From an uncultured Erysipelotrichaceae bacterium (GTDB lineage Bacteria > Bacillota_I > Bacilli_A > RFN20 > CAG-826), in NCBI GenBank assembly GCA_902794835.1, contig CADBIO010000002.1:1-48060 (forward strand): a DNA stretch of 48,060 bases, read 5' to 3'. Of the stretch, positions 7,608-48,060 are shown piece by piece; position 1 is the stretch's first letter; each line of letters begins with the position of its first letter. The translations under genes and the position numbers were made by a program. The notes beneath the pieces were generated by a model, which was not told where the DNA came from, searched no databases, and saw nothing but the letters and a program-made list of their open reading frames with translations.

Positions 7608-8168
7608 TTATCGCGGGTATTTTGCTCCTCTCGTTCCCGGATAAATCGTTTTGAGTCCTTCCTCCCCTAGAAGGTTTCTTACGATCGCTTCGGCAAACTC
7701 GATCGTGTAATACATTGAATGTCCTGTAATGATGTTTCCATCTACGACCGCCCCCGTTTCCAAATAAGTCCCTTTTCCGCATTGGAAGCCGGGGAAACAG
7801 GTGTATTTCTTGCCATCTAAATAACCTAATTCCCCTAAAATTGAAGGACCAGCACAAATGGCAAAAATCTTTTTCCCCTCGTTATGGAATTTTTTGATGG
7901 CTTCCATAGCGAGGCTTGATTTCTTGATGTTTTCCACTCCTAATTTACCACCAGGAATCACCAAAAAATCATAAGACCCAAAATCTGGCATATCTCCTAA
8001 AAGGCCCTGAGAGATCATTTCCAATCCCATAGAGGAAATGACATTCAAATGATCTGAAATGGAGAGGTACGTGACATCAATTTCATGGGTTCTTGTCAAA
8101 ATATCATGGGTGCCGATGGCTTCGGTTTCTTCGAACCCATCTGCCAATAACATTAATCCTTTGATCAT
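7608..8168 (-). CDS. DJ-1/PfpI (YajL/ThiJ-like) protein
   Basis: LADGFEETEA, LVIPGG, FAICAGP nucleophile Cys; SD AAGGGAG. Confidence 0.9.
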   Translation of the reverse strand: MIKGLMLLADGFEETEAIGTHDILTRTHEIDVTYLSISDHLNVISSMGLEMISQGLLGDMPDFGSYDFLVIPGGKLGVENIKKSSLAMEAIKKFHNEGKKIFAICAGPSILGELGYLDGKKYTCFPGFQCGKGTYLETGAVVDGNIITGHSMYYTIEFAEAIVRNLLGEEGLKTIYPGTRGAKYPR

Positions 8169-9157: not shown

Positions 9158-10507
<1,350 letters not shown>

Positions 10508-27021: not shown

Positions 27022-31355
<4,334 letters not shown>

Positions 31356-31414: not shown

Positions 31415-32560
31415 TTGGAGAACTTTATCTGCGAACGTTGCGGCAATCGAGATCCGCGTTATATCGGCTTTAAAAACGGAAAGCCATACTGCCGAAGATG
31501 CATCTCCTTCCAAGGCGAAAGCGTTTCTTATGAGAAACCCCTCCCTAAAAGAGCGCCTTTAAATCTGCATTATGGTTTATCTCAAGATCAAGCCCGCCTT
31601 AGCGAAAAAATCGTGTCCAACTTCAAAAACGGAATCGATACCTTGGTCTATGCTGTATGTGGGGCGGGAAAAACAGAGATCAGCTATGCCGTAATTTCTT
31701 ATGCCATCTCCCAAGGAATGACGGTTGGCTTTGCTTTGCCAAGACGCGATGTGGTTATCGAGCTTTTTTATCGCCTGAAAGAATCATTTCCGGAAAACAA
31801 AGTGGTTGCTGTTTTTGGTCAACATACCTCCGTTTTAAAAGGCGATATCATCATTCTTACCACCCATCAGCTTTTTCGCTATCCTAACTATTTCGATTTG
31901 CTAGTGATGGATGAGATTGATGCCTTCCCTTTCAAAGACAATCCCGTTTTAATCGCCATGTATCGAAGAGCTATGCGGGGGAGTTGCGTCTTAATGAGCG
32001 CAACCCCTTCAGAAAACGTAATCCAAGAATTCAAGAAACCTGATCATGAAATTTTGGAATTAAGGACGCGTTTCCACCACCAAGAGATTCCTCTCCCCCA
32101 AACAAAAATCATGCCCTCATTTCTGCAACCATTATTTGTTGTCGCCAAACTTCTCCATTACAAAAAAGAAGGGAAATGTTGTTTCGTTTTCACCCCGTCC
32201 ATTGAAGAATGCGAGATGCTATATCGTTTTGTCTCTTGCTTTGTGAAAGGAGGCTCTTTTGTGCATTCGAAAAAAGAAAACAGGCAAGAAACAATAGGGA
32301 TATTTAAGAAAAAAGGTTATTTCTACCTGATTACCACATCGGTTTTGGAGCGGGGAGTCACTTTTAAAAACCTCCAAGTGATGGTAACCCACGCTGACCG
32401 GGAATCGATTTATTCCTCCAGCGCTTTAATTCAGATTGCGGGGCGGGTGGGGAGAAAAAGCGACGCCCCAGGAGGAGATGTTATTTTCTTGGGAGAAGTG
32501 GAATCGAAAGCTATGAAGGACGCACATGATGAAATCCAATTCTGCAACACCTTTCTGTAA
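31415..32560 (+). CDS. comFA: Competence helicase ComFA
   Basis: CERC...CRRC zinc finger, AVCGAGKTE, PRRDV, DEIDAFP, SATP, LERGVT, QIAGRVGR; TTG start after GAGGGGGG. Confidence 0.9.
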   Translation: MENFICERCGNRDPRYIGFKNGKPYCRRCISFQGESVSYEKPLPKRAPLNLHYGLSQDQARLSEKIVSNFKNGIDTLVYAVCGAGKTEISYAVISYAISQGMTVGFALPRRDVVIELFYRLKESFPENKVVAVFGQHTSVLKGDIIILTTHQLFRYPNYFDLLVMDEIDAFPFKDNPVLIAMYRRAMRGSCVLMSATPSENVIQEFKKPDHEILELRTRFHHQEIPLPQTKIMPSFLQPLFVVAKLLHYKKEGKCCFVFTPSIEECEMLYRFVSCFVKGGSFVHSKKENRQETIGIFKKKGYFYLITTSVLERGVTFKNLQVMVTHADRESIYSSSALIQIAGRVGRKSDAPGGDVIFLGEVESKAMKDAHDEIQFCNTFL

Positions 32561-42839: not shown

Positions 42840-42870
42840 AAATTGCGACCACCGGTTGCAATTTTTCTTT
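42840..42870. terminator. Terminator between convergent folD and yolD-like gene
   Basis: AAATTGCGACC-acc-GGTTGCAATTTTTT. Confidence 0.75.
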
Positions 42871-43183
42871 AATCATTATCGGGATATAAATCTGTTAACT
42901 GTCGGAAATAAATCTCCTCGCCCCCTATTCTTAAATATCCATAAATCGTGGACACTTCTTCAAGGTAGCCGTGAATGGCATAAATATAGCCATCATGCCA
43001 ATAACGAGCGACGATTTTCTCTCCTTTGTAATTGGTGAGCAAATCATTAATTTCCTCAGCTTTGTCATTGGACATTTGAGGGCAAGGTCGTTTATTTCTT
43101 TCATAATCCATGCGAGCTAAAAAATCCGCTTGTTGATCCAATGATTTGTAAGGAGCCCATTTTAACATTCCGCGATCTTTCAT
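42869..43183 (-). CDS. YolD-like protein
   Basis: DRGMLKWAPY signature; ATGA-coupled to Y-family polymerase. Confidence 0.85.
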   Translation of the reverse strand: MKDRGMLKWAPYKSLDQQADFLARMDYERNKRPCPQMSNDKAEEINDLLTNYKGEKIVARYWHDGYIYAIHGYLEEVSTIYGYLRIGGEEIYFRQLTDLYPDND

Positions 43184-44421
43184 TCTCTGTGTCCTCCAAT
43201 TTGTTCATGTCTTCTCCGAATGGTGGAATTAGGCAACAACGAGGAACATCGAAGCACACTGTTGCGCCCATATATTCCATGAATTTGATCTAAGGTGCGA
43301 TCCAAAGACCTTCTCTCTTCTTGTTCTTTTGGATCGATAAACAAAGAAGTTTGCTCCATCTTCGGATTACTTAATTTCCCGAAGGAAATCCCCAAAGCGC
43401 ATATTGGTGCTTCTTTGATTCCCGAAAAGAAGGCTTCTCGGATATAGGCGAACAACTCATAAGTGGAATCGGTAGCGATGGGAAGCTGCATTTGACGGGA
43501 ATATCCACCAAGCGTTCCATAAGAAGCCCAAACGGATATTTTCTGTGTCAGAAAGCTCTCTTTTCTTAATCGTGAAGAAAGATCATCAACCATCTCTCGA
43601 AGCAAAAGCTCGCATTGAGAAGGGACCAATGGCTTGATTAAAGTTTGTCCATTAGACAAAGAAGGGGATACGGGGGTGTATTTTTGAGGGATTTCTGATT
43701 CGTCTTTGCCATTGGCTAAGGCTTTTAATTGAGCCCCCATAATACCAAATTCTTTGGCAAGCAAAGTGTCATCAGCATGAGCTAATTCCTTTAAGGTATT
43801 GATACCGATCCTTGAAAGGTGAGAAGCAGTGCCTTCAGCAATCGACCAGATTTTGGTCATCGGATGGATTTTCCACAATTTCGCAGGTACGTCTTGTTCA
43901 TCCCAATGGGCGATAAATGGTTTTTTCTTTTTGCCTTCGTTATCTAACGCCGTTTTTGCCAAAAACATATTGGGGCCGATTCCTGCTGTGGCGACGAGCC
44001 CCAGCCGATCCCATATCTCTTTTTGAATCCTTTTCACAATGGTTTCAGCCGATCCGCCATATAACTTAAGATACGGGCCTAAATTCAAAAAACTTTCATC
44101 CACGGAATAAATGTGGAGATCTTCTGGTGCGACATATTCTAAAAAGATCGACACGACCTTCGCGGATATGGTCAGATAATAAGACATGCGGGGGACGGCA
44201 TAAATCATCCCGGGAACGTTTGGCAAATCTCTTTTTCGGCAGACGTTCCCACAGCCATATTTTTCTTTTAAATAAGGCGTGACTGACATCACGATGGAAG
44301 AGTCGGAGCGATAGGGGTCACAACAAACCAAAGGCGTTTTAAAGATGTCCAGATGACGGACTGCGCACTCACAGGAGGCATAGAAACTTTTTAGGTCAAT
44401 GATGGCTATCGTTCGTGTCAT
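43180..44421 (-). CDS. Y-family DNA polymerase (UmuC/UvrX-like)
   Basis: IDLKSFYASCE, YSVDESF, GIGPNMFLAK, C-terminal IGGH. Confidence 0.92.
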   Translation of the reverse strand: MTRTIAIIDLKSFYASCECAVRHLDIFKTPLVCCDPYRSDSSIVMSVTPYLKEKYGCGNVCRKRDLPNVPGMIYAVPRMSYYLTISAKVVSIFLEYVAPEDLHIYSVDESFLNLGPYLKLYGGSAETIVKRIQKEIWDRLGLVATAGIGPNMFLAKTALDNEGKKKKPFIAHWDEQDVPAKLWKIHPMTKIWSIAEGTASHLSRIGINTLKELAHADDTLLAKEFGIMGAQLKALANGKDESEIPQKYTPVSPSLSNGQTLIKPLVPSQCELLLREMVDDLSSRLRKESFLTQKISVWASYGTLGGYSRQMQLPIATDSTYELFAYIREAFFSGIKEAPICALGISFGKLSNPKMEQTSLFIDPKEQEERRSLDRTLDQIHGIYGRNSVLRCSSLLPNSTIRRRHEQIGGHRE

Positions 44422-44757
44422 GGGACCTTATTAAAAAGGGAGATTCAAACAAGAAAAAGCCTTGAATTTTCAATGTTTCGAAGCAATGGGCAAAGTAGGT
44501 TAAAAACTTTACAATTACAAAGAAAACGGCCTTATACGATGTCATAATGAAAGCGATAAAAACCAAACGCCATCGCCAAAATAAATATTTTGAACAAATA
44601 AAGGAAAATGGCGATAAAAGCCTTCTTCCAAATGCATTCAAACGGGAAAACGAGGCAACGCGCGTGGAATTTTTGGAAACTTTACAATTGCAAATTGAAA
44701 TTGTTCTTGAAAAAGCGTTTTCTTTTTCTTTCAGGATTACTATAATAATAACCCGTT

Positions 44758-44833
44758 GGGACATTAGCTCAGCTGGGAGAGCGCCTCGTTCGCAACGAGG
44801 AGGTCGACGGTTCGATCCCGTTATGTTCCACCA
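44758..44833 (+). tRNA. tRNA-Ala (anticodon CGC)
   Basis: Cloverleaf: GGGACAT/ATGTTCC acceptor with G3:U70, CCTCG-TT-CGC-AA-CGAGG anticodon arm, TTCGA T-loop, A73, encoded CCA; TATAAT at 44741. Confidence 0.97.
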
Positions 44834-44845
44834 ATAAGCATATAT

Positions 44846-44951
44846 TTGTCGTCGTCCAAATCCGATCGTCCTCAGTTGGACAAAACGGATCGACCTCGGC
44901 GGTTTGAATAGAAGCCGTCAGGAATGGCGGCTTTTTTCGTATCTCGAACTC
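44846..44951 (+). repeat. Repeat module copy 1 (inverted boxes, terminator, conserved tail)
   Basis: TTGTCGTCGTCCAAA-N15-TTGGACAAAA ... hairpin 44912-44937 ... CGTATCTCGAACTC. Confidence 0.75.
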
Positions 44952-44983
44952 GCCGAGCTTCCTTTCGCTTAGAAGTGGGTGCA

Positions 44984-45012
44984 TTGCGAATTAATCAAAA
45001 GTATACTAAAAT
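44984..45012 (+). promoter_or_regulatory. Sigma-A promoter (leaderless) of XRE-GNAT gene
   Basis: TTGCGA-N17-TAAAAT, ATG 6 nt downstream. Confidence 0.7.
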
Positions 45013-45018
45013 TAAACC

Positions 45019-45762
45019 ATGGCAAAAGAACTTGGTAGAAAAATAAGGTCCATACGTCTTAAAAGGAATTTAAGCCAGTCTGAAATGGCAGATATTTTAG
45101 GATATTCCGGAAAAGGAATGATCAGCCGTTTGGAAAACGATTCGGCGGAAATGAGCTACGAAAAACTAATGCTCTTGCTGTCGCGTTTCGGCGAAGATTT
45201 TGAAGGGGAAACGATCGAGACCCTTGCTCCAAAGGCTGATTCCACAGTGATCAAGTCAGCTAACCTTGTTCTCAAGGCCATTGGTTTCGCAGAACTTGAC
45301 GACGTGTTGTCTTTAAAGGTTGCGCCTCATCAACGTGACTTTGTTGCGGAAAACGCGCTCGCTATCGCGGAGGCCTATGCTGCCGAACACGAAGGTGGGA
45401 AAACGCAGTGTTTTGTGGCCTATCACAAGAACGCTCCGGTTGGTTTTGCTTCTATTGCCTTAGGCTCGATAGGAGCCAAAAGAGAAAAAGAGTGGATGAA
45501 AAAATCCTATTGTCTGTGGCGAATCATGATAGATATGAACTATCAAGGCAAAGGTTTTGGCAAAGAACTGCTTACCAGCGTCATTAGGTGGTGCGCTACA
45601 AAGCCCCTAGGCGAAGCCGATGCCATATACACAAGCTGCGATGGAAAAAACGAGGGGGCGATATCCCTATATCAGGCGGCCGGCTTTGAAGTCACGGGCG
45701 AAAAGATCGATGGAGAAATTGTTCTTAAGCGGAGTTTAATGGGAGGGCATTTGGATGAATGA
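45019..45762 (+). CDS. XRE helix-turn-helix plus GNAT acetyltransferase fusion
   Basis: IRLKRNLSQSEMADILGYS..ISRLEN; RIMIDMNYQGKGFGK, N..A..LY...GF (diamine acetyltransferase-like). Confidence 0.85.
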   Translation: MAKELGRKIRSIRLKRNLSQSEMADILGYSGKGMISRLENDSAEMSYEKLMLLLSRFGEDFEGETIETLAPKADSTVIKSANLVLKAIGFAELDDVLSLKVAPHQRDFVAENALAIAEAYAAEHEGGKTQCFVAYHKNAPVGFASIALGSIGAKREKEWMKKSYCLWRIMIDMNYQGKGFGKELLTSVIRWCATKPLGEADAIYTSCDGKNEGAISLYQAAGFEVTGEKIDGEIVLKRSLMGGHLDE

Positions 45763-46627
45763 TAAATATGAATTGGTTCGATTCGAAAAAGACGGTCTGA
45801 TTCTTGACGTTAATGTGTCTCCAAGCGAGGACACTGTATGGCTTTCTTTGAATGAGATGTGCCTTTTGTTCGGGCGCGACAAATCGGTTATTTCAAGACA
45901 TATCAAGAATGTATTTAAAGAAGGGGAGTTAGACTCGAAACGAGTTGTTGCAAAAAATGCAACTACTGCTTCAGATGGGAAGGTTTATGAAGTGACGTTT
46001 TATAACCTAGATGTAATCATTTCGGTTGGCTACCGCGTGAAATCTAAAAACGGGGTGGCTTTTCGAAAATGGGCAAACTCTGTCCTAAAAGAGTATTTGT
46101 TACGTGGGTATGTAGTTGATAGTAGCCGCGCTCTTGTGACCAACGAGAATTACATTAACCTTCTAAATAAGGTTGAAAGTATCGACACGAGGTTGACCAA
46201 AATCGAGGAAGAACATATCCCGGACTTAGAAAAGGTTTTCTTCGACGGCGAATATTTAAACGCTAGAGTATTTATAAAAGAACTGTTTTCTAAGGCAAAA
46301 ACAAGCATTGTGGTCGTCGACCCTTATGCCGACGCAAAGGCGCTTGGTTTTCTTTCGAGCAAAGACAACGCGATTCCGGCAAAAATAATCGTTTCATCCA
46401 AGACCAAACTTACGCAGGGCGATGTTGATGCATTTGTCCTTCAGTATGGAGCATTAACTGTTAAGAGTGACGATTCGTTCCACGACCGCTTTGTCGTCAT
46501 AGACGGCAAGTCTTTATATCACCTTGGAACTTCGTTGAATTATGTCGGCAGGAAAACATTTGCGATTTCGGAACTGACGGACGAGCGGCTTGTGAAAAGC
46601 GTGATTGATAGGATAAACGCCAATTAA
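45755..46627 (+). CDS. RhuM family protein with C-terminal PLD-like domain
   Basis: TVWLS...VISRHIKNVFKEGEL, YNLDVIISVGYRVKS..G..FRKWA; C-terminal VVDPY...FHDRFVVID..YHLGTSLN. Confidence 0.8.
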   Translation: MNDKYELVRFEKDGLILDVNVSPSEDTVWLSLNEMCLLFGRDKSVISRHIKNVFKEGELDSKRVVAKNATTASDGKVYEVTFYNLDVIISVGYRVKSKNGVAFRKWANSVLKEYLLRGYVVDSSRALVTNENYINLLNKVESIDTRLTKIEEEHIPDLEKVFFDGEYLNARVFIKELFSKAKTSIVVVDPYADAKALGFLSSKDNAIPAKIIVSSKTKLTQGDVDAFVLQYGALTVKSDDSFHDRFVVIDGKSLYHLGTSLNYVGRKTFAISELTDERLVKSVIDRINAN

Positions 46628-46716
46628 GGTTCGCGAACGTCTATAAACATGACAAAAAGGCGGATAGATCAAGCTAGAGAGGGAAGCTGCGTCTGGCGAG
46701 ATTCGATAGTGGGGGG

Positions 46717-46747
46717 AAGCCGAGTGAAATATCTCGGTTTTTCTTTT
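46717..46747 (+). terminator. Intrinsic terminator
   Basis: AAGCCGAG-tgaaatat-CTCGGTTTTTCTTTT. Confidence 0.8.
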
Positions 46748-46809
46748 GCCTTCTAAGGACGAAGGATTTTGGACAAAATAGGATGGATTGACTTAGACAA
46801 CCACACAAA

Positions 46810-46905
46810 TTGTCGTTGTCCAAAGTCACTTATTCAAAATTGGACAAAAAGACTTATCCAGCATAGATTAGGCCTCTTCGGAGGTCTTTTCTCGTGTCTT
46901 GACTC
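46810..46905 (+). repeat. Repeat module copy 2
   Basis: TTGTCGTTGTCCAAA-N15-TTGGACAAAA ... hairpin AGGCCTC-TTCG-GAGGTCT-TTT ... CGTGTCTTGACTC. Confidence 0.75.
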
Positions 46906-46910
46906 TTTTT

Positions 46911-46961
46911 AAGTGCAAGTTGCACTTTAAGATTGCACTTTAAAGCATTTTATGATAATAT
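46911..46961 (+). promoter_or_regulatory. Fic promoter with adjacent operator-like repeats
   Basis: Palindrome AAGTGCAA-G-TTGCACTT, direct repeat TTGCACTTTAA x2, TTGCAC-N17-TAATAT. Confidence 0.7.
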
Positions 46962-46967
46962 TTTCCT

Positions 46968-47942
46968 GTGGAAAATAATTATACAAACCGTTACATATTG
47001 GAAACTGGCATTGGTCTTCAAGATGTCGACCATTTAAAGAATTCATCATATTTCCTTCAGGAATCCGAAAGATATTTAAAAGGCGAAATCTCGCTAGATG
47101 AATTAGATGACATCGTGAACTCCTATTACAAGAGTAAACCAGCCGTGGGAGATAGAAGCGAGGAAGCTGATAAAGTCTCGATTAGAATAGCTAGAATAAT
47201 CAATGAGGATTATTTCACTTTTACCGTTGGGCAGCTACTTTCTATTCATCGAATTTTATTTGAAGGTATTTTGGAACACCCTGGCCAATTAAGAACCTAC
47301 AATTTCTCAAAAAAAGAATGGGTTCTTGATGGCGCATCGGTCATCTATGGGGACTATCGTGAATTAGAGGCGACGCTTCAATATGATTTTGATATCGAAA
47401 AGCGGTTTGATTATTCAAAACTTTCCATGGATGAAATCGTTGAGCATCTTGCAATCTTTATTGCCAACCTTTGGCAAATTCACGTTTTTGAAGAGGGCAA
47501 TACCAGAACTACTGCGGTATTTACCATTAAATATTTAAGGAGTTTAGGCTTTGATGTAACCAATGATACATTTGCTAAAAACGCGTGGTATTTCAGAAAC
47601 TCTTTAGTGAGGGCAAACTACACAAACCTACAAAAAGGAATTTATGAAGATAGAACGTATCTCATTAAGTTTCTCAAAAATTTGTTATTCAATGAGAATA
47701 ACCGGTTGGAAAACAAAGAATTGCATATTGTTCCTCTTTCTTCTGTGTTTAATGAGACAAAAGAAGCTAGATTACTCCGTTTGTTAAAAGGTAATCCGAC
47801 TCTGAGAACAGACGAACTAGCGAGGGAATTAGGCGTTTCGTTAAGGACGATTAAAAGCATTATTGCCGCCTTAAGAAAAGACGGGAAACTAGAGCGCGTA
47901 GGCGGAAAGAAATATGGTCACTGGGAGGTAAAGCAACTATGA
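46968..47942 (+). CDS. Fic domain protein with VbhA-like N-terminus and C-terminal HTH
   Basis: Fic motif HVFEEGNTRTT; N-terminal TGIGLQDVD helix; C-terminal ELARELGVSLRTIK...ERVGGKKYGHWEV. Confidence 0.88.
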   Translation: MENNYTNRYILETGIGLQDVDHLKNSSYFLQESERYLKGEISLDELDDIVNSYYKSKPAVGDRSEEADKVSIRIARIINEDYFTFTVGQLLSIHRILFEGILEHPGQLRTYNFSKKEWVLDGASVIYGDYRELEATLQYDFDIEKRFDYSKLSMDEIVEHLAIFIANLWQIHVFEEGNTRTTAVFTIKYLRSLGFDVTNDTFAKNAWYFRNSLVRANYTNLQKGIYEDRTYLIKFLKNLLFNENNRLENKELHIVPLSSVFNETKEARLLRLLKGNPTLRTDELARELGVSLRTIKSIIAALRKDGKLERVGGKKYGHWEVKQL

Positions 47943-48049
47943 AAACTTATTGCGGAATCGATTGTTGCAAAGATTGTGACAAATTATCCGAATGTGGTGG
48001 CTGTGAGAAGTGTCAGGGGCACCCTGTAGGAGCGGTTCAGCCGCTCTAA
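47939..48049 (+). pseudogene. Truncated Cys-rich DUF3795-like gene
   Basis: ATGA-coupled to Fic; MKTYCGIDCCKDC..CGGCEKCQGHP then VGAVQPL* from a GTAG-hairpin sequence. Confidence 0.55.
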
Positions 48050-48060
48050 TCATTACTATT

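Follow-up and report, generated by a model that had tools for sequence, protein, structure and literature searches.

What is the module that recurs in front of the genes behind a tRNA-Ala gene of an uncultured Erysipelotrichaceae bacterium, and how did the units that it precedes come to be stacked there? The window studied here is the whole of one contig of that genome (48,060 nt; CADBIO010000002.1). We refer to the genome as G000, to the window as its contig C2 and to its other contigs likewise (C7, C41 and so on), and to related loci by L-numbers. A sequence-only reading of the window had proposed that two copies of the module, each consisting of inverted arms around a spacer, resemble recombination sites, and that an integron-like or serial-integration system stacks insulated cassettes at the 3' end of the tRNA. 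We found that the locus is an integron-like store of defence-type genes in uncultured ruminant-gut Bacilli. On the interpretation that we favour, and consider fairly probable, its units are non-autonomous mini-transposon cassettes, mobilised in trans and stacked behind tRNA-Ala, and the modules are their left ends (L-ends).

Both copies of the module are present in the window, as TTGTCGTCGTCCAAA-N15-TTGGACAAAA at 44846-44885 and as TTGTCGTTGTCCAAA-N15-TTGGACAAAA at 46810-46849; the left arm common to the two is TTGTCGTYGTCCAAA, followed by 15 nt and TTGGACAAAA. As ARAGORN places the end of the tRNA at 44833, copy 1 begins 12 nt past the CCA. The pattern GTCCAA-N14-18-TTGGAC matched twice in the window against 0.03 matches expected, none of 100 shuffled sequences reached two matches, and the two copies, aligned over ~160 columns, had a mean column identity of 74%. 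Each copy is followed by a G+C-rich hairpin and T-run, differing in sequence between the copies (44914-44928 after copy 1, 46870-46887 after copy 2), and then by a tail of the form CGTRTCTYGA(A)CTC, which reads CGTATCTCGAACTC in copy 1 and CGTGTCTTGACTC in copy 2. All of this agreed with what the sequence-only reading had described. It had also placed a promoter and a leaderless two-gene unit behind each copy. Two-gene units do follow both, and a promoter-like site lies near the first ATG; such sites are not enriched (6 in the region against 5.8 in shuffled sequences), and a promoter role of TTGCGA-17-TAAAAT and a leaderless start of the gene at 45019 are plausible.

Copies 2 and 3 (the third lies beyond the window) have a further common stretch of ~45-70 nt upstream, which across related loci is the right end (R-end) of the preceding cassette. 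R-ends are roughly 70-110 nt long and, at internal copies, adjoin the next L-end across about 5 nt. Their consensus, from 20 aligned sequences, is ...AACACGACA(A/T)AATAnnGGATAG...ATTTAGACAAAAnnGGATrrrT...yAGnCAACyACA, followed by a short spacer and TGTCGTyGTCC. The two ends share an inverted repeat with the termini TGT...ACA, which takes up the first ~28 nt of the L-end and the last ~28 nt of the R-end. A profile built from 16 R-end sequences matched L-ends on the opposite strand, both in the own genome (C7 30106-30055, E 1.5e-6; C41, E 0.006; C2, E 0.008) and at many other loci (E 1e-4 to 1e-6). We therefore read the module as the L-end of a cassette, rather than as a stand-alone recombination site. 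The spacer between the facing termini measured 5 nt in 10 of the 16 R-L junctions in which both termini were readable by eye, and 3-7 nt in the others. Complete L...R units (n = 16, with one artefact of length 1 left out) spanned 171-2070 bp, the 171-bp unit being empty.

Viewed in this way, the left arm of the module is part of the terminal inverted repeat (TIR), and the right arm TTGGACAAAA with its ACTTATCC-type bases is a direct subterminal repeat of GTCCAAA plus spacer. In cassette 1 the L-end comprises, in order, the TIR TTGTCGTCGTCCAAA, the subterminal repeat TTGGACAAAA with CGGATCGACC, and an intrinsic terminator formed by the 44914-44928 stem and its T-run; the R-end comprises an inner TTCGCGAAC...ACATGACAAAAAGGCGGATAG repeat, a terminator at 46719-46737 with a T-run, a subterminal TTGGACAAAATAGGATGGAT and a terminal TGACTTAGACAACCACA, the last being inverted relative to the L-end terminus. 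The L-end of cassette 2 is made up of a TIR, a subterminal repeat, the terminator at 46870-46887 and a 13-nt relic of an inverted tRNA tail. R-ends carry two GACAAAA-nn-GGATrrrT repeats and a terminal repeat ending in ACA, three repeats compared with two in the L-end, and the GACAAAA motif is not oriented alike in the two ends. The inner terminator of the R-end (in the window GCCGAGTGAAATATCTCGG and its T-run) is conserved in other R-ends, and terminators stand at both ends of each unit. By analogy with Tn7-like ends the repeats may be transposase-binding sites.

This anatomy also accounts for features of the module that had been taken as marks of recombination. The spacer is 15 nt long in both window copies, as claimed; it is not freely variable, only a few alleles occurring among 67 unique L-ends (80 found). 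Complementarity between the spacer start and the bases after the right arm is likewise present in both copies (ATCCG/CGGAT and AGTC/GACT) and reaches at least 4 nt in 42 of the 67 unique copies, but is shorter in the other 25. It results from the internal direct repeat, and it is broken in the mosaic L-ends L009 and L011, where spacer and post-arm bases come from different alleles. With a left arm that belongs to a ~28-nt TIR, a right arm that is a subterminal repeat and so few spacer alleles, the idea that arms and spacer form an integron-like recombination site was not supported. Some loci are without the 15-nt spacer, or have an R-end that runs straight into a right arm (L024:5853, L024:8239, L120:~6760, and L025:3419-3462 / L009:7198), and the right arm TTGGACAAA of RUG266 continues into the middle of the HTH-GNAT gene; deletion variants of this kind suggest breakage or slippage at internal repeats.

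The tail that follows the terminator appears to derive from a tRNA. Eight of 74 unique tails matched the reverse complement of tRNA-Ala (E<0.01), compared with 0/74 for the forward strand, and the match is near full length in L133 and L021 (L-end at 8074), where it reaches the 5' end of the tRNA. We take the tail to be the start of an inverted tRNA-Ala relic downstream of the L-end terminator, judging from these alignments, and this relic may be used by a trans-acting homing machinery. The homology in L133, L021 and L106 commonly ends in the anticodon loop, at GCGAAC; R-ends start with TTCGCGAAC.

The array goes on past the end of the window. Contig C41 begins with the last 99 nt of the window, and the join is spanned by the metagenome contig L140 (98.9% identity) and by a 33,660-nt contig of sequencing run X1. 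Cassette 1 thus occupies 44846-46805; cassette 2 leaves the window and extends from 46810 to C41:564, with its R-end at C41 502-564; then comes a truncated third unit, whose L-end lies at C41:568 to ~650, about 470 nt beyond the window end. Assemblies of these genomes break behind tRNA-Ala because of the cassettes stacked there.

Comparison of related strains indicated how such arrays change. Locus L101 is 98-99% identical to the window and carries an extra cassette of ~1.8 kb between the tRNA and cassette 1, with the structure tRNA-...GCAT[ATATT]-TTGTCGTTG...CAACTACA-[ATATT]-TGTCGTCG. The extra unit has an L-end of its own (another allele) and an R-end, and ATATT stands on both sides of it where the window has a single ATATT. 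This is one insertion bounded exactly by the termini and flanked by a 5-nt duplication; its cargo is a small open reading frame (ORF) and a 313-aa protein without Pfam family. A second pair of loci, L033 and L018, differ by a 500-bp extra unit, flanked in L033 by TCTCC/TCTGT where L018 reads TCTCT. Gene content therefore changes exactly at the modules, which bore out the proposal made from the sequence. An L-end moves together with the cargo behind it: cassette 1 has the same allele whether it occupies the proximal slot (window, L105) or an internal one (L101), and full-length RhuM cassettes have a common post-terminator segment.

We then compared the 5-mers abutting TGT, leaving out loci that duplicate another (L010, L017, L027, L036, L112, L115, L132). 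Identical 5-mers were found in 4/29 within-array pairs as against 14/751 between-array pairs, and matches at four or more of the five positions in 7/29 as against 73/751. The flanking 5-mers vary between arrays and tend to match within them, which is easier to reconcile with transposition than with recombination at a fixed core.

Two further differences were seen at the window cassettes. In the near-identical strain L105 a 712-bp IS200/IS605 insertion sequence (IS; 9232-9944; Y1_Tnp, E 1.1e-36) sits exactly after the T-run of the copy 1 terminator, and loose ends of run X16 at window 44936/44937 have the same flanking letters as this insertion. One low-depth contig of run X1 (depth 8.9) skips 46754-46906, a stretch of 153 nt that comprises the whole R-L junction of copy 2.

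Insertion is specific in site and orientation. All 29 tRNA-proximal L-ends have their TGT 11-17 nt from the end of the tRNA (25/29 at 13-15 nt) and none (0/29) has the opposite orientation; the tRNAs in front of them are 27 Ala(CGC), one Ala(GGC) and one Leu(CAG). The 3' flank of rpsR (ribosomal protein S18) is a second site, used in G000 (C7:30056), L019 and L104. In the own genome it holds a complete cassette on C7, consisting of an L-end at 30056, a CitMHS transporter gene and an R-end at 31773. Arrays with between two and five L-ends are frequent (L024, L039, L014, L120, L125 and L101 among others). The end of an array is marked by a lone R-end against non-cassette DNA (L123, L104, L106, L120, L030, C7) or, in L014, by a decayed L-end after the last R-end. 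The proposal of serial stacking at the 3' end of the tRNA was borne out: the cassettes there have one orientation, and each unit has terminators at both ends. Among 18 tRNA-Ala(CGC) loci of the same genus, two carry an L-end, 15 do not and one lies at a contig edge. Most of the 15 L-end-free loci run directly into a plain terminator, and we therefore regard these loci as empty sites. The own genome also has an R-L junction beside HepT-GNAT/MNT genes (C60:2826-2868) and a lone R-end at a contig start (C24:42-101).

The flank of tRNA-Ala receives other inserts as well. In L113 (7151-9983, compared with L042; a shorter form is in L117) the L-end is separated from the 3' end of the tRNA by a different, G+C-richer insert of 2.8 kb with CCACCAAA(G) on its flanks; this insert encodes small basic ORFs in repeated form (MSNKKK...EIGVSYTDREGRRRYVYRSDF), which belong to no Pfam family, and it has no integrase. 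Decayed 3' halves of tRNA-Ala, rather than an R-end, precede some internal L-ends (L026:~5950, L029, L030:~2830, L036/L040:~5960). These halves are genuine tRNA remnants and show that a separate att-type family of elements also uses tRNA-Ala, displacing both the former 3' half and the L-end.

Further copies of the module, whose absence would have refuted the sequence-only reading, were found on C41 and in many other genomes. Allowing up to two mismatches, L-ends occurred in 30 of the 401 sampled genomes of the order, compared with 0 for a reversed control pattern; they were present in 28/264 genomes of the own family (G000 uncounted) and in 1/67 of one other family, and in 11 of 70 genera. The strict L-end pattern matched 39 stretches in species-representative genomes, of which 12 were chance matches in unrelated taxa and 27 were true copies in ruminant-gut metagenome-assembled genomes (MAGs) labelled Bacilli, Erysipelotrichaceae or Bacillales. 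In metagenomes it matched 42 loci, 30 of them confirmed by the L-end profile and 12 not. The same strict pattern gave no match outside the own genome in 60 relatives, a null result that is misleading, since a single mismatch hides a copy in G069. The strain itself is common, with 20 sequencing runs from 8 bovine/sheep gut studies holding at least 75% of the sampled words. Neither the L-end nor the R-end pattern matched any viral contig, and blastn of the R-L junction against plasmids and phages gave no match. Ten matches of GTCCAAAGTCACTTATYC in viral contigs were dismissed as chance, as they lie in one phage coding region without the second arm and without an R-end.

Cargo and possible helper enzymes were examined in Pfam scans of 201 array-side ORFs (109 + 80 + 12). 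The cargo includes RhuM, HTH-GNAT, Fic, AAA_14-DUF4143, DUF4256, Phd/ParE, YoeB, HepT/MNT, DUF4160/DUF2442, NUDIX, Nif11-like peptides and transporters, and long units also carry metabolic genes. The only transposase matches were secondary insertions, an IS with DDE_Tnp_1_6 (IS1182-like) in L117 and the IS200 in L105. In the own genome PF00239 had no match, and PF00589 had four, all on contigs away from the arrays and two of them fragments at contig ends; no L- or R-end match stands beside any transposase there. Three candidates for a helper were rejected. The rve matches of the own genome belong to IS3-like orfAB at contig ends, with readable right ends that are unrelated and left ends unassembled. 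An N-terminally truncated tyrosine-integrase fragment (C11:1-318 / C79:1-99, which share its last 99 nt) is a remnant at an assembly bubble, unlinked to L- or R-ends. The 313-aa ORF of L101 has no Pfam family and is acidic by eye, and so was not taken as a transposase.

Together these observations point to the following model. A cassette consists of an L-end (the TIR from TGT, one subterminal repeat, a terminator and the inverted tRNA-Ala relic), a putative promoter of its own, cargo genes numbering 0-3, and an R-end; the terminators probably insulate each unit. Its usual site is 13-15 nt downstream of tRNA-Ala(CGC), in one orientation, and less often it lies behind tRNA-Ala(GGC), tRNA-Leu(CAG) or rpsR. 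A newcomer would land directly against the resident L-end and duplicate 5 nt of target, and proximal landing with such a duplication would give the head-to-tail stacking. The chemistry would be DDE-type transposition, to judge from the 5-bp stagger and from TGT/ACA ends as in the Tn7/Mu group; the enzyme would act in trans from an element outside these bins, and the cassettes may derive from a Tn7/Mu-type DDE transposon stripped of its genes. We prefer this reading because of the inverted TGT...ACA termini, the subterminal repeats, the modal 5-nt junction and the clean 5-nt duplication at a recent insertion, and because flanks differ between arrays while distance and orientation to the tRNA are fixed.

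Several findings weigh against it. Most arrays are without matching 5-mers, the three of the window differ (ATATT, CAAAT, ATGTT), and no duplication is seen at the lone cassettes of C7, L123 and L104. The type-A L-end of cassette 1 is without the ACTTATCC motif present in most ends. Cassettes 1 and 2 were unchanged in contigs of four runs from four studies, with no joint that removes a cassette; as assembled contigs drop rare variants, this says nothing on excision. None of the 201 array-side ORFs matched a tyrosine or serine recombinase or a Tn7-type protein. The rve family was not found in 6 of 16 array-bearing genomes, and the others had only IS-sized ORFs (up to 536 aa). TniQ was above cut-off in 0/401 genomes of the order and was also silent in all 14 control genomes. 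TnsA, TnsB, TnsC and TniQ, which would be expected of a Tn7-like element, were found neither in the arrays nor in the own genome, where the TniQ and TnsA searches, run without a positive control on an incomplete MAG, gave no match. The silence of the TniQ controls and the incompleteness of the MAGs make these helper negatives weak. Finally, the cassettes abut head-to-tail, despite the target immunity described for Tn7 (PMC11014353), which discourages a second insertion.

The strongest alternative is site-specific recombination of the integron type, in which the R-end/5-nt/L-end junction would act like attC on a circle, a tyrosine or serine recombinase would be supplied in trans and the 5 nt would be the crossover; we regard it as unlikely. 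The R-L junction is an imperfect palindrome of ~60 nt, attC-like in size, an L...R unit flanked by 5-nt repeats would be the product of either process, and units are added at the proximal slot, as they are in integrons. Chromosomal integron cargo resembles the toxin-antitoxin pairs, GNAT proteins and small unknown proteins found here, and other inserts at tRNA-Ala show classic att-type repeats of the tRNA 3' end (L026, L036, L113). However, no recombinase stands beside any array (0/201 ORFs), the own genome is without PF00239 and has its four PF00589 matches elsewhere, two as fragments at contig ends, and the 5-nt spacers are array-specific and tend to match the local target, which is unexpected for a crossover owned by the element. 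No resemblance to an R-end is seen in the tRNA-side half of the proximal site, and the boundaries are TGT/ACA, not G|TTRRRY. The absence of a recombinase from the window had been noted before, and the linked enzyme that was suggested as a check was looked for and not found among the array-side ORFs. Membership in the integrons, which had been considered, was not upheld, as no intI gene, attI site or attC-type core was found.

An explanation without any dedicated mobility, in which the ends are conserved terminator or insulator modules and arrays are reshuffled by homologous recombination after gene transfer, seems to us improbable. It would agree with the failure to find an enzyme, with the mosaic L-ends L009 and L011, with deletions between two internal repeats (L024:5853, L024:8239, L120) and with an arrangement that is stable in four runs from four studies, but it leaves unexplained the inverted-repeat relation of the ends, the modal 5-nt spacing (10/16), the duplication in L101, the fixed distance and orientation at three tRNAs and rpsR, and the 171-bp empty unit. 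Very improbable is a structured RNA, the hairpin or pseudoknot with its terminator being a riboswitch-like element or a 3'-trailer RNA of the tRNA transcript: 54/67 unique copies have an intact GUCCAA/UUGGAC hairpin (with G-U variants in L027 and L125:1540), folding z-scores of the window copies are -3.4 to -3.9 and a terminator always follows, but in an Rfam scan of 44400-48060 (E up to 10) only the tRNA passed and other scores were below half the gathering score, the three own-genome copies fold differently, the second helix is under 4 nt in 25/67 copies and is explained by the internal direct repeat, internal copies are preceded by a terminator and R-end and not by a promoter, and the hairpin arms never co-vary.

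The features of the array within the window are given in Table 1. Upstream of the tRNA, at window 42869-44421 on the minus strand, are a Y-family polymerase (IMS, IMS_C) and a YolD-like gene. This synteny is kept in relatives, array-bearing and array-free alike. Elsewhere in the own genome, contig C15 has five copies (3344, 6104, 8190, 22892, 26036) of an unrelated ~37-nt repeat, AAAACACGTATTTTTACGTACGTGTCTYGACAATCGA, which may be a shared operator or promoter.

Table 1. Positions of the tRNA and of cassette features in the window.
Feature	Position	Strand	Evidence or remark
tRNA-Ala(CGC)	44758..44833	+	ARAGORN; Rfam tRNA 62.9 bits; landmark in front of the array
A+T-rich gap, tRNA to cassette 1 TGT terminus	44834..44846	+	last 5 nt, ATATT, duplicated around the extra cassette of L101
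L-end of cassette 1 (module copy 1)	44846..44937	+	nhmmer L-end model, E 2.6e-13
Putative inverted decayed tRNA-Ala remnant (the tail; T-arm towards anticodon arm)	44938..44975	-	recognisable in the window only via alignment to L133/L021
Promoter-like site TTGCGA-17-TAAAAT	44984..45012	+	ends 6 nt before the ATG at 45019
HTH(XRE)-GNAT acetyltransferase fusion, cargo gene 1 of cassette 1	45019..45762	+	Pfam PF00583 1.8e-13, PF01381 5.8e-8
RhuM-family N-terminal domain protein, cargo gene 2 of cassette 1	45755..46627	+	Pfam PF13310 1.1e-22
R-end of cassette 1	46628..46805	+	R-end model match 46763-46807, E 1.2e-6; alignment of 20 R-ends
Junction spacer CAAAT, between cassette 1 ACA and cassette 2 TGT termini	46806..46810	.	
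L-end of cassette 2 (module copy 2)	46810..46905	+	L-end model, E 9.8e-16
Fic/DOC protein with C-terminal HTH, cassette 2 cargo	46968..47942	+	Pfam PF02661 5.9e-13, PF08279 3.2e-8
36-aa Cys-rich ORF overlapping the Fic stop codon, cassette 2 cargo	47939..48049	+	no Pfam family

If the transposition model is correct, small-genome ruminant-gut Bacilli keep a 'safe-harbour' slot for ready-made, insulated defence, toxin-antitoxin and stress genes, and a second, mechanistically different route leads to integron-like cassette arrays. Both ends are short and have clear limits, and the target is a single tRNA flank; a helper, if found, would define a new system of homing transposition (or recombination) and could also give a compact tool for site-specific insertion.

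We searched the literature, mostly at abstract level, and found no description of this cassette family; it was therefore compared with the known systems that it most resembles. Mobile insertion cassettes (MICs) and cargo-bearing miniature inverted-repeat transposable elements, such as MIC231 of Bacillus cereus and the qnr-bearing MICs, hold passenger genes between TIRs, have no transposase and are presumed to be mobilised in trans; their repeats are shared with a known resident IS, and they are dispersed. The cassettes likewise have TIRs, passenger genes and no transposase. In contrast to MICs, no matching IS was found for them, the IS3-like ends of the own genome being unrelated as far as assembled, and nearly all copies are at one tRNA flank.

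With integrons the cassettes share a unidirectional array, small units of mostly one or two genes, proximal entry, palindromic junctions and similar cargo. They differ in that no PF00589 is found among the 201 array-side ORFs and the upstream neighbours are the polymerase and YolD-like genes. RYYYAAC...GTTRRRY cores were not seen, the boundaries being ...CAACyACA / N5 / TGTCGTyGTCC as read from alignments, with no attC model. Promoter-like sites, probably the cassettes' own, stand before the cargo, terminators lie at both ends, and the 5-nt flanks appear to derive from the target.

Integrase-less islets that target tRNAs include the cis-mobilizable elements (CIMEs). They share with the present cassettes the tandem accretion of recombinase-less units beside a tRNA, an arrangement also described for the cargo satellites of Prochlorococcus tycheposons (10.1101/2020.12.28.424599). 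The units of such islets are bounded by direct repeats of the 3' part of the tRNA, whereas the cassettes are bounded by inverted repeats and leave the tRNA untouched; the window cassettes are flanked by inverted ends and not by tRNA repeats, and true pseudo-tRNA 3' halves were seen only at L026, L029, L030, L036 and L040.

There is also a likeness to the Tn7-like elements (Tn7, Tn6022, tRNA-homing CRISPR-associated transposons and TniQ/TnsD elements). Tn7 makes a 5-bp target duplication; in the cassettes such a duplication is exact in L101 and is reflected in the within-array enrichment, and it is absent from C7, L123, L104 and the window junctions. Tn7-like elements are described as having TGT/ACA termini (PMC11014353) and arrays of end-binding sites, insertion at safe sites downstream of tRNAs, and defence cargo (PMC8649781, PMC11014353). 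The cassettes have TGT...ACA termini and subterminal repeats that are asymmetric between the ends, they insert a short fixed distance downstream of a tRNA in one orientation, and they carry defence and toxin-antitoxin cargo. Besides the missing Tns proteins and the head-to-tail packing, they differ in size, measuring 0.2-2 kb compared with tens of kb for Tn7-like elements. It is possible, and we put it forward tentatively, that the system is a gene-capture platform of Bacillota built by transposition and functionally integron-like, in which insulated, transposase-free cassettes of 0.2-2 kb would be brought to the flank of tRNA-Ala by a machinery acting in trans that is not the canonical TnsABC-TniQ and that tolerates, or even prefers, a resident end as its neighbour. 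The cassettes fail at least one defining feature of each of the four classes, the Tn7-like transposon, the MIC, the integron and the tRNA-linked integrase-less islet, while resembling every one of them in part.

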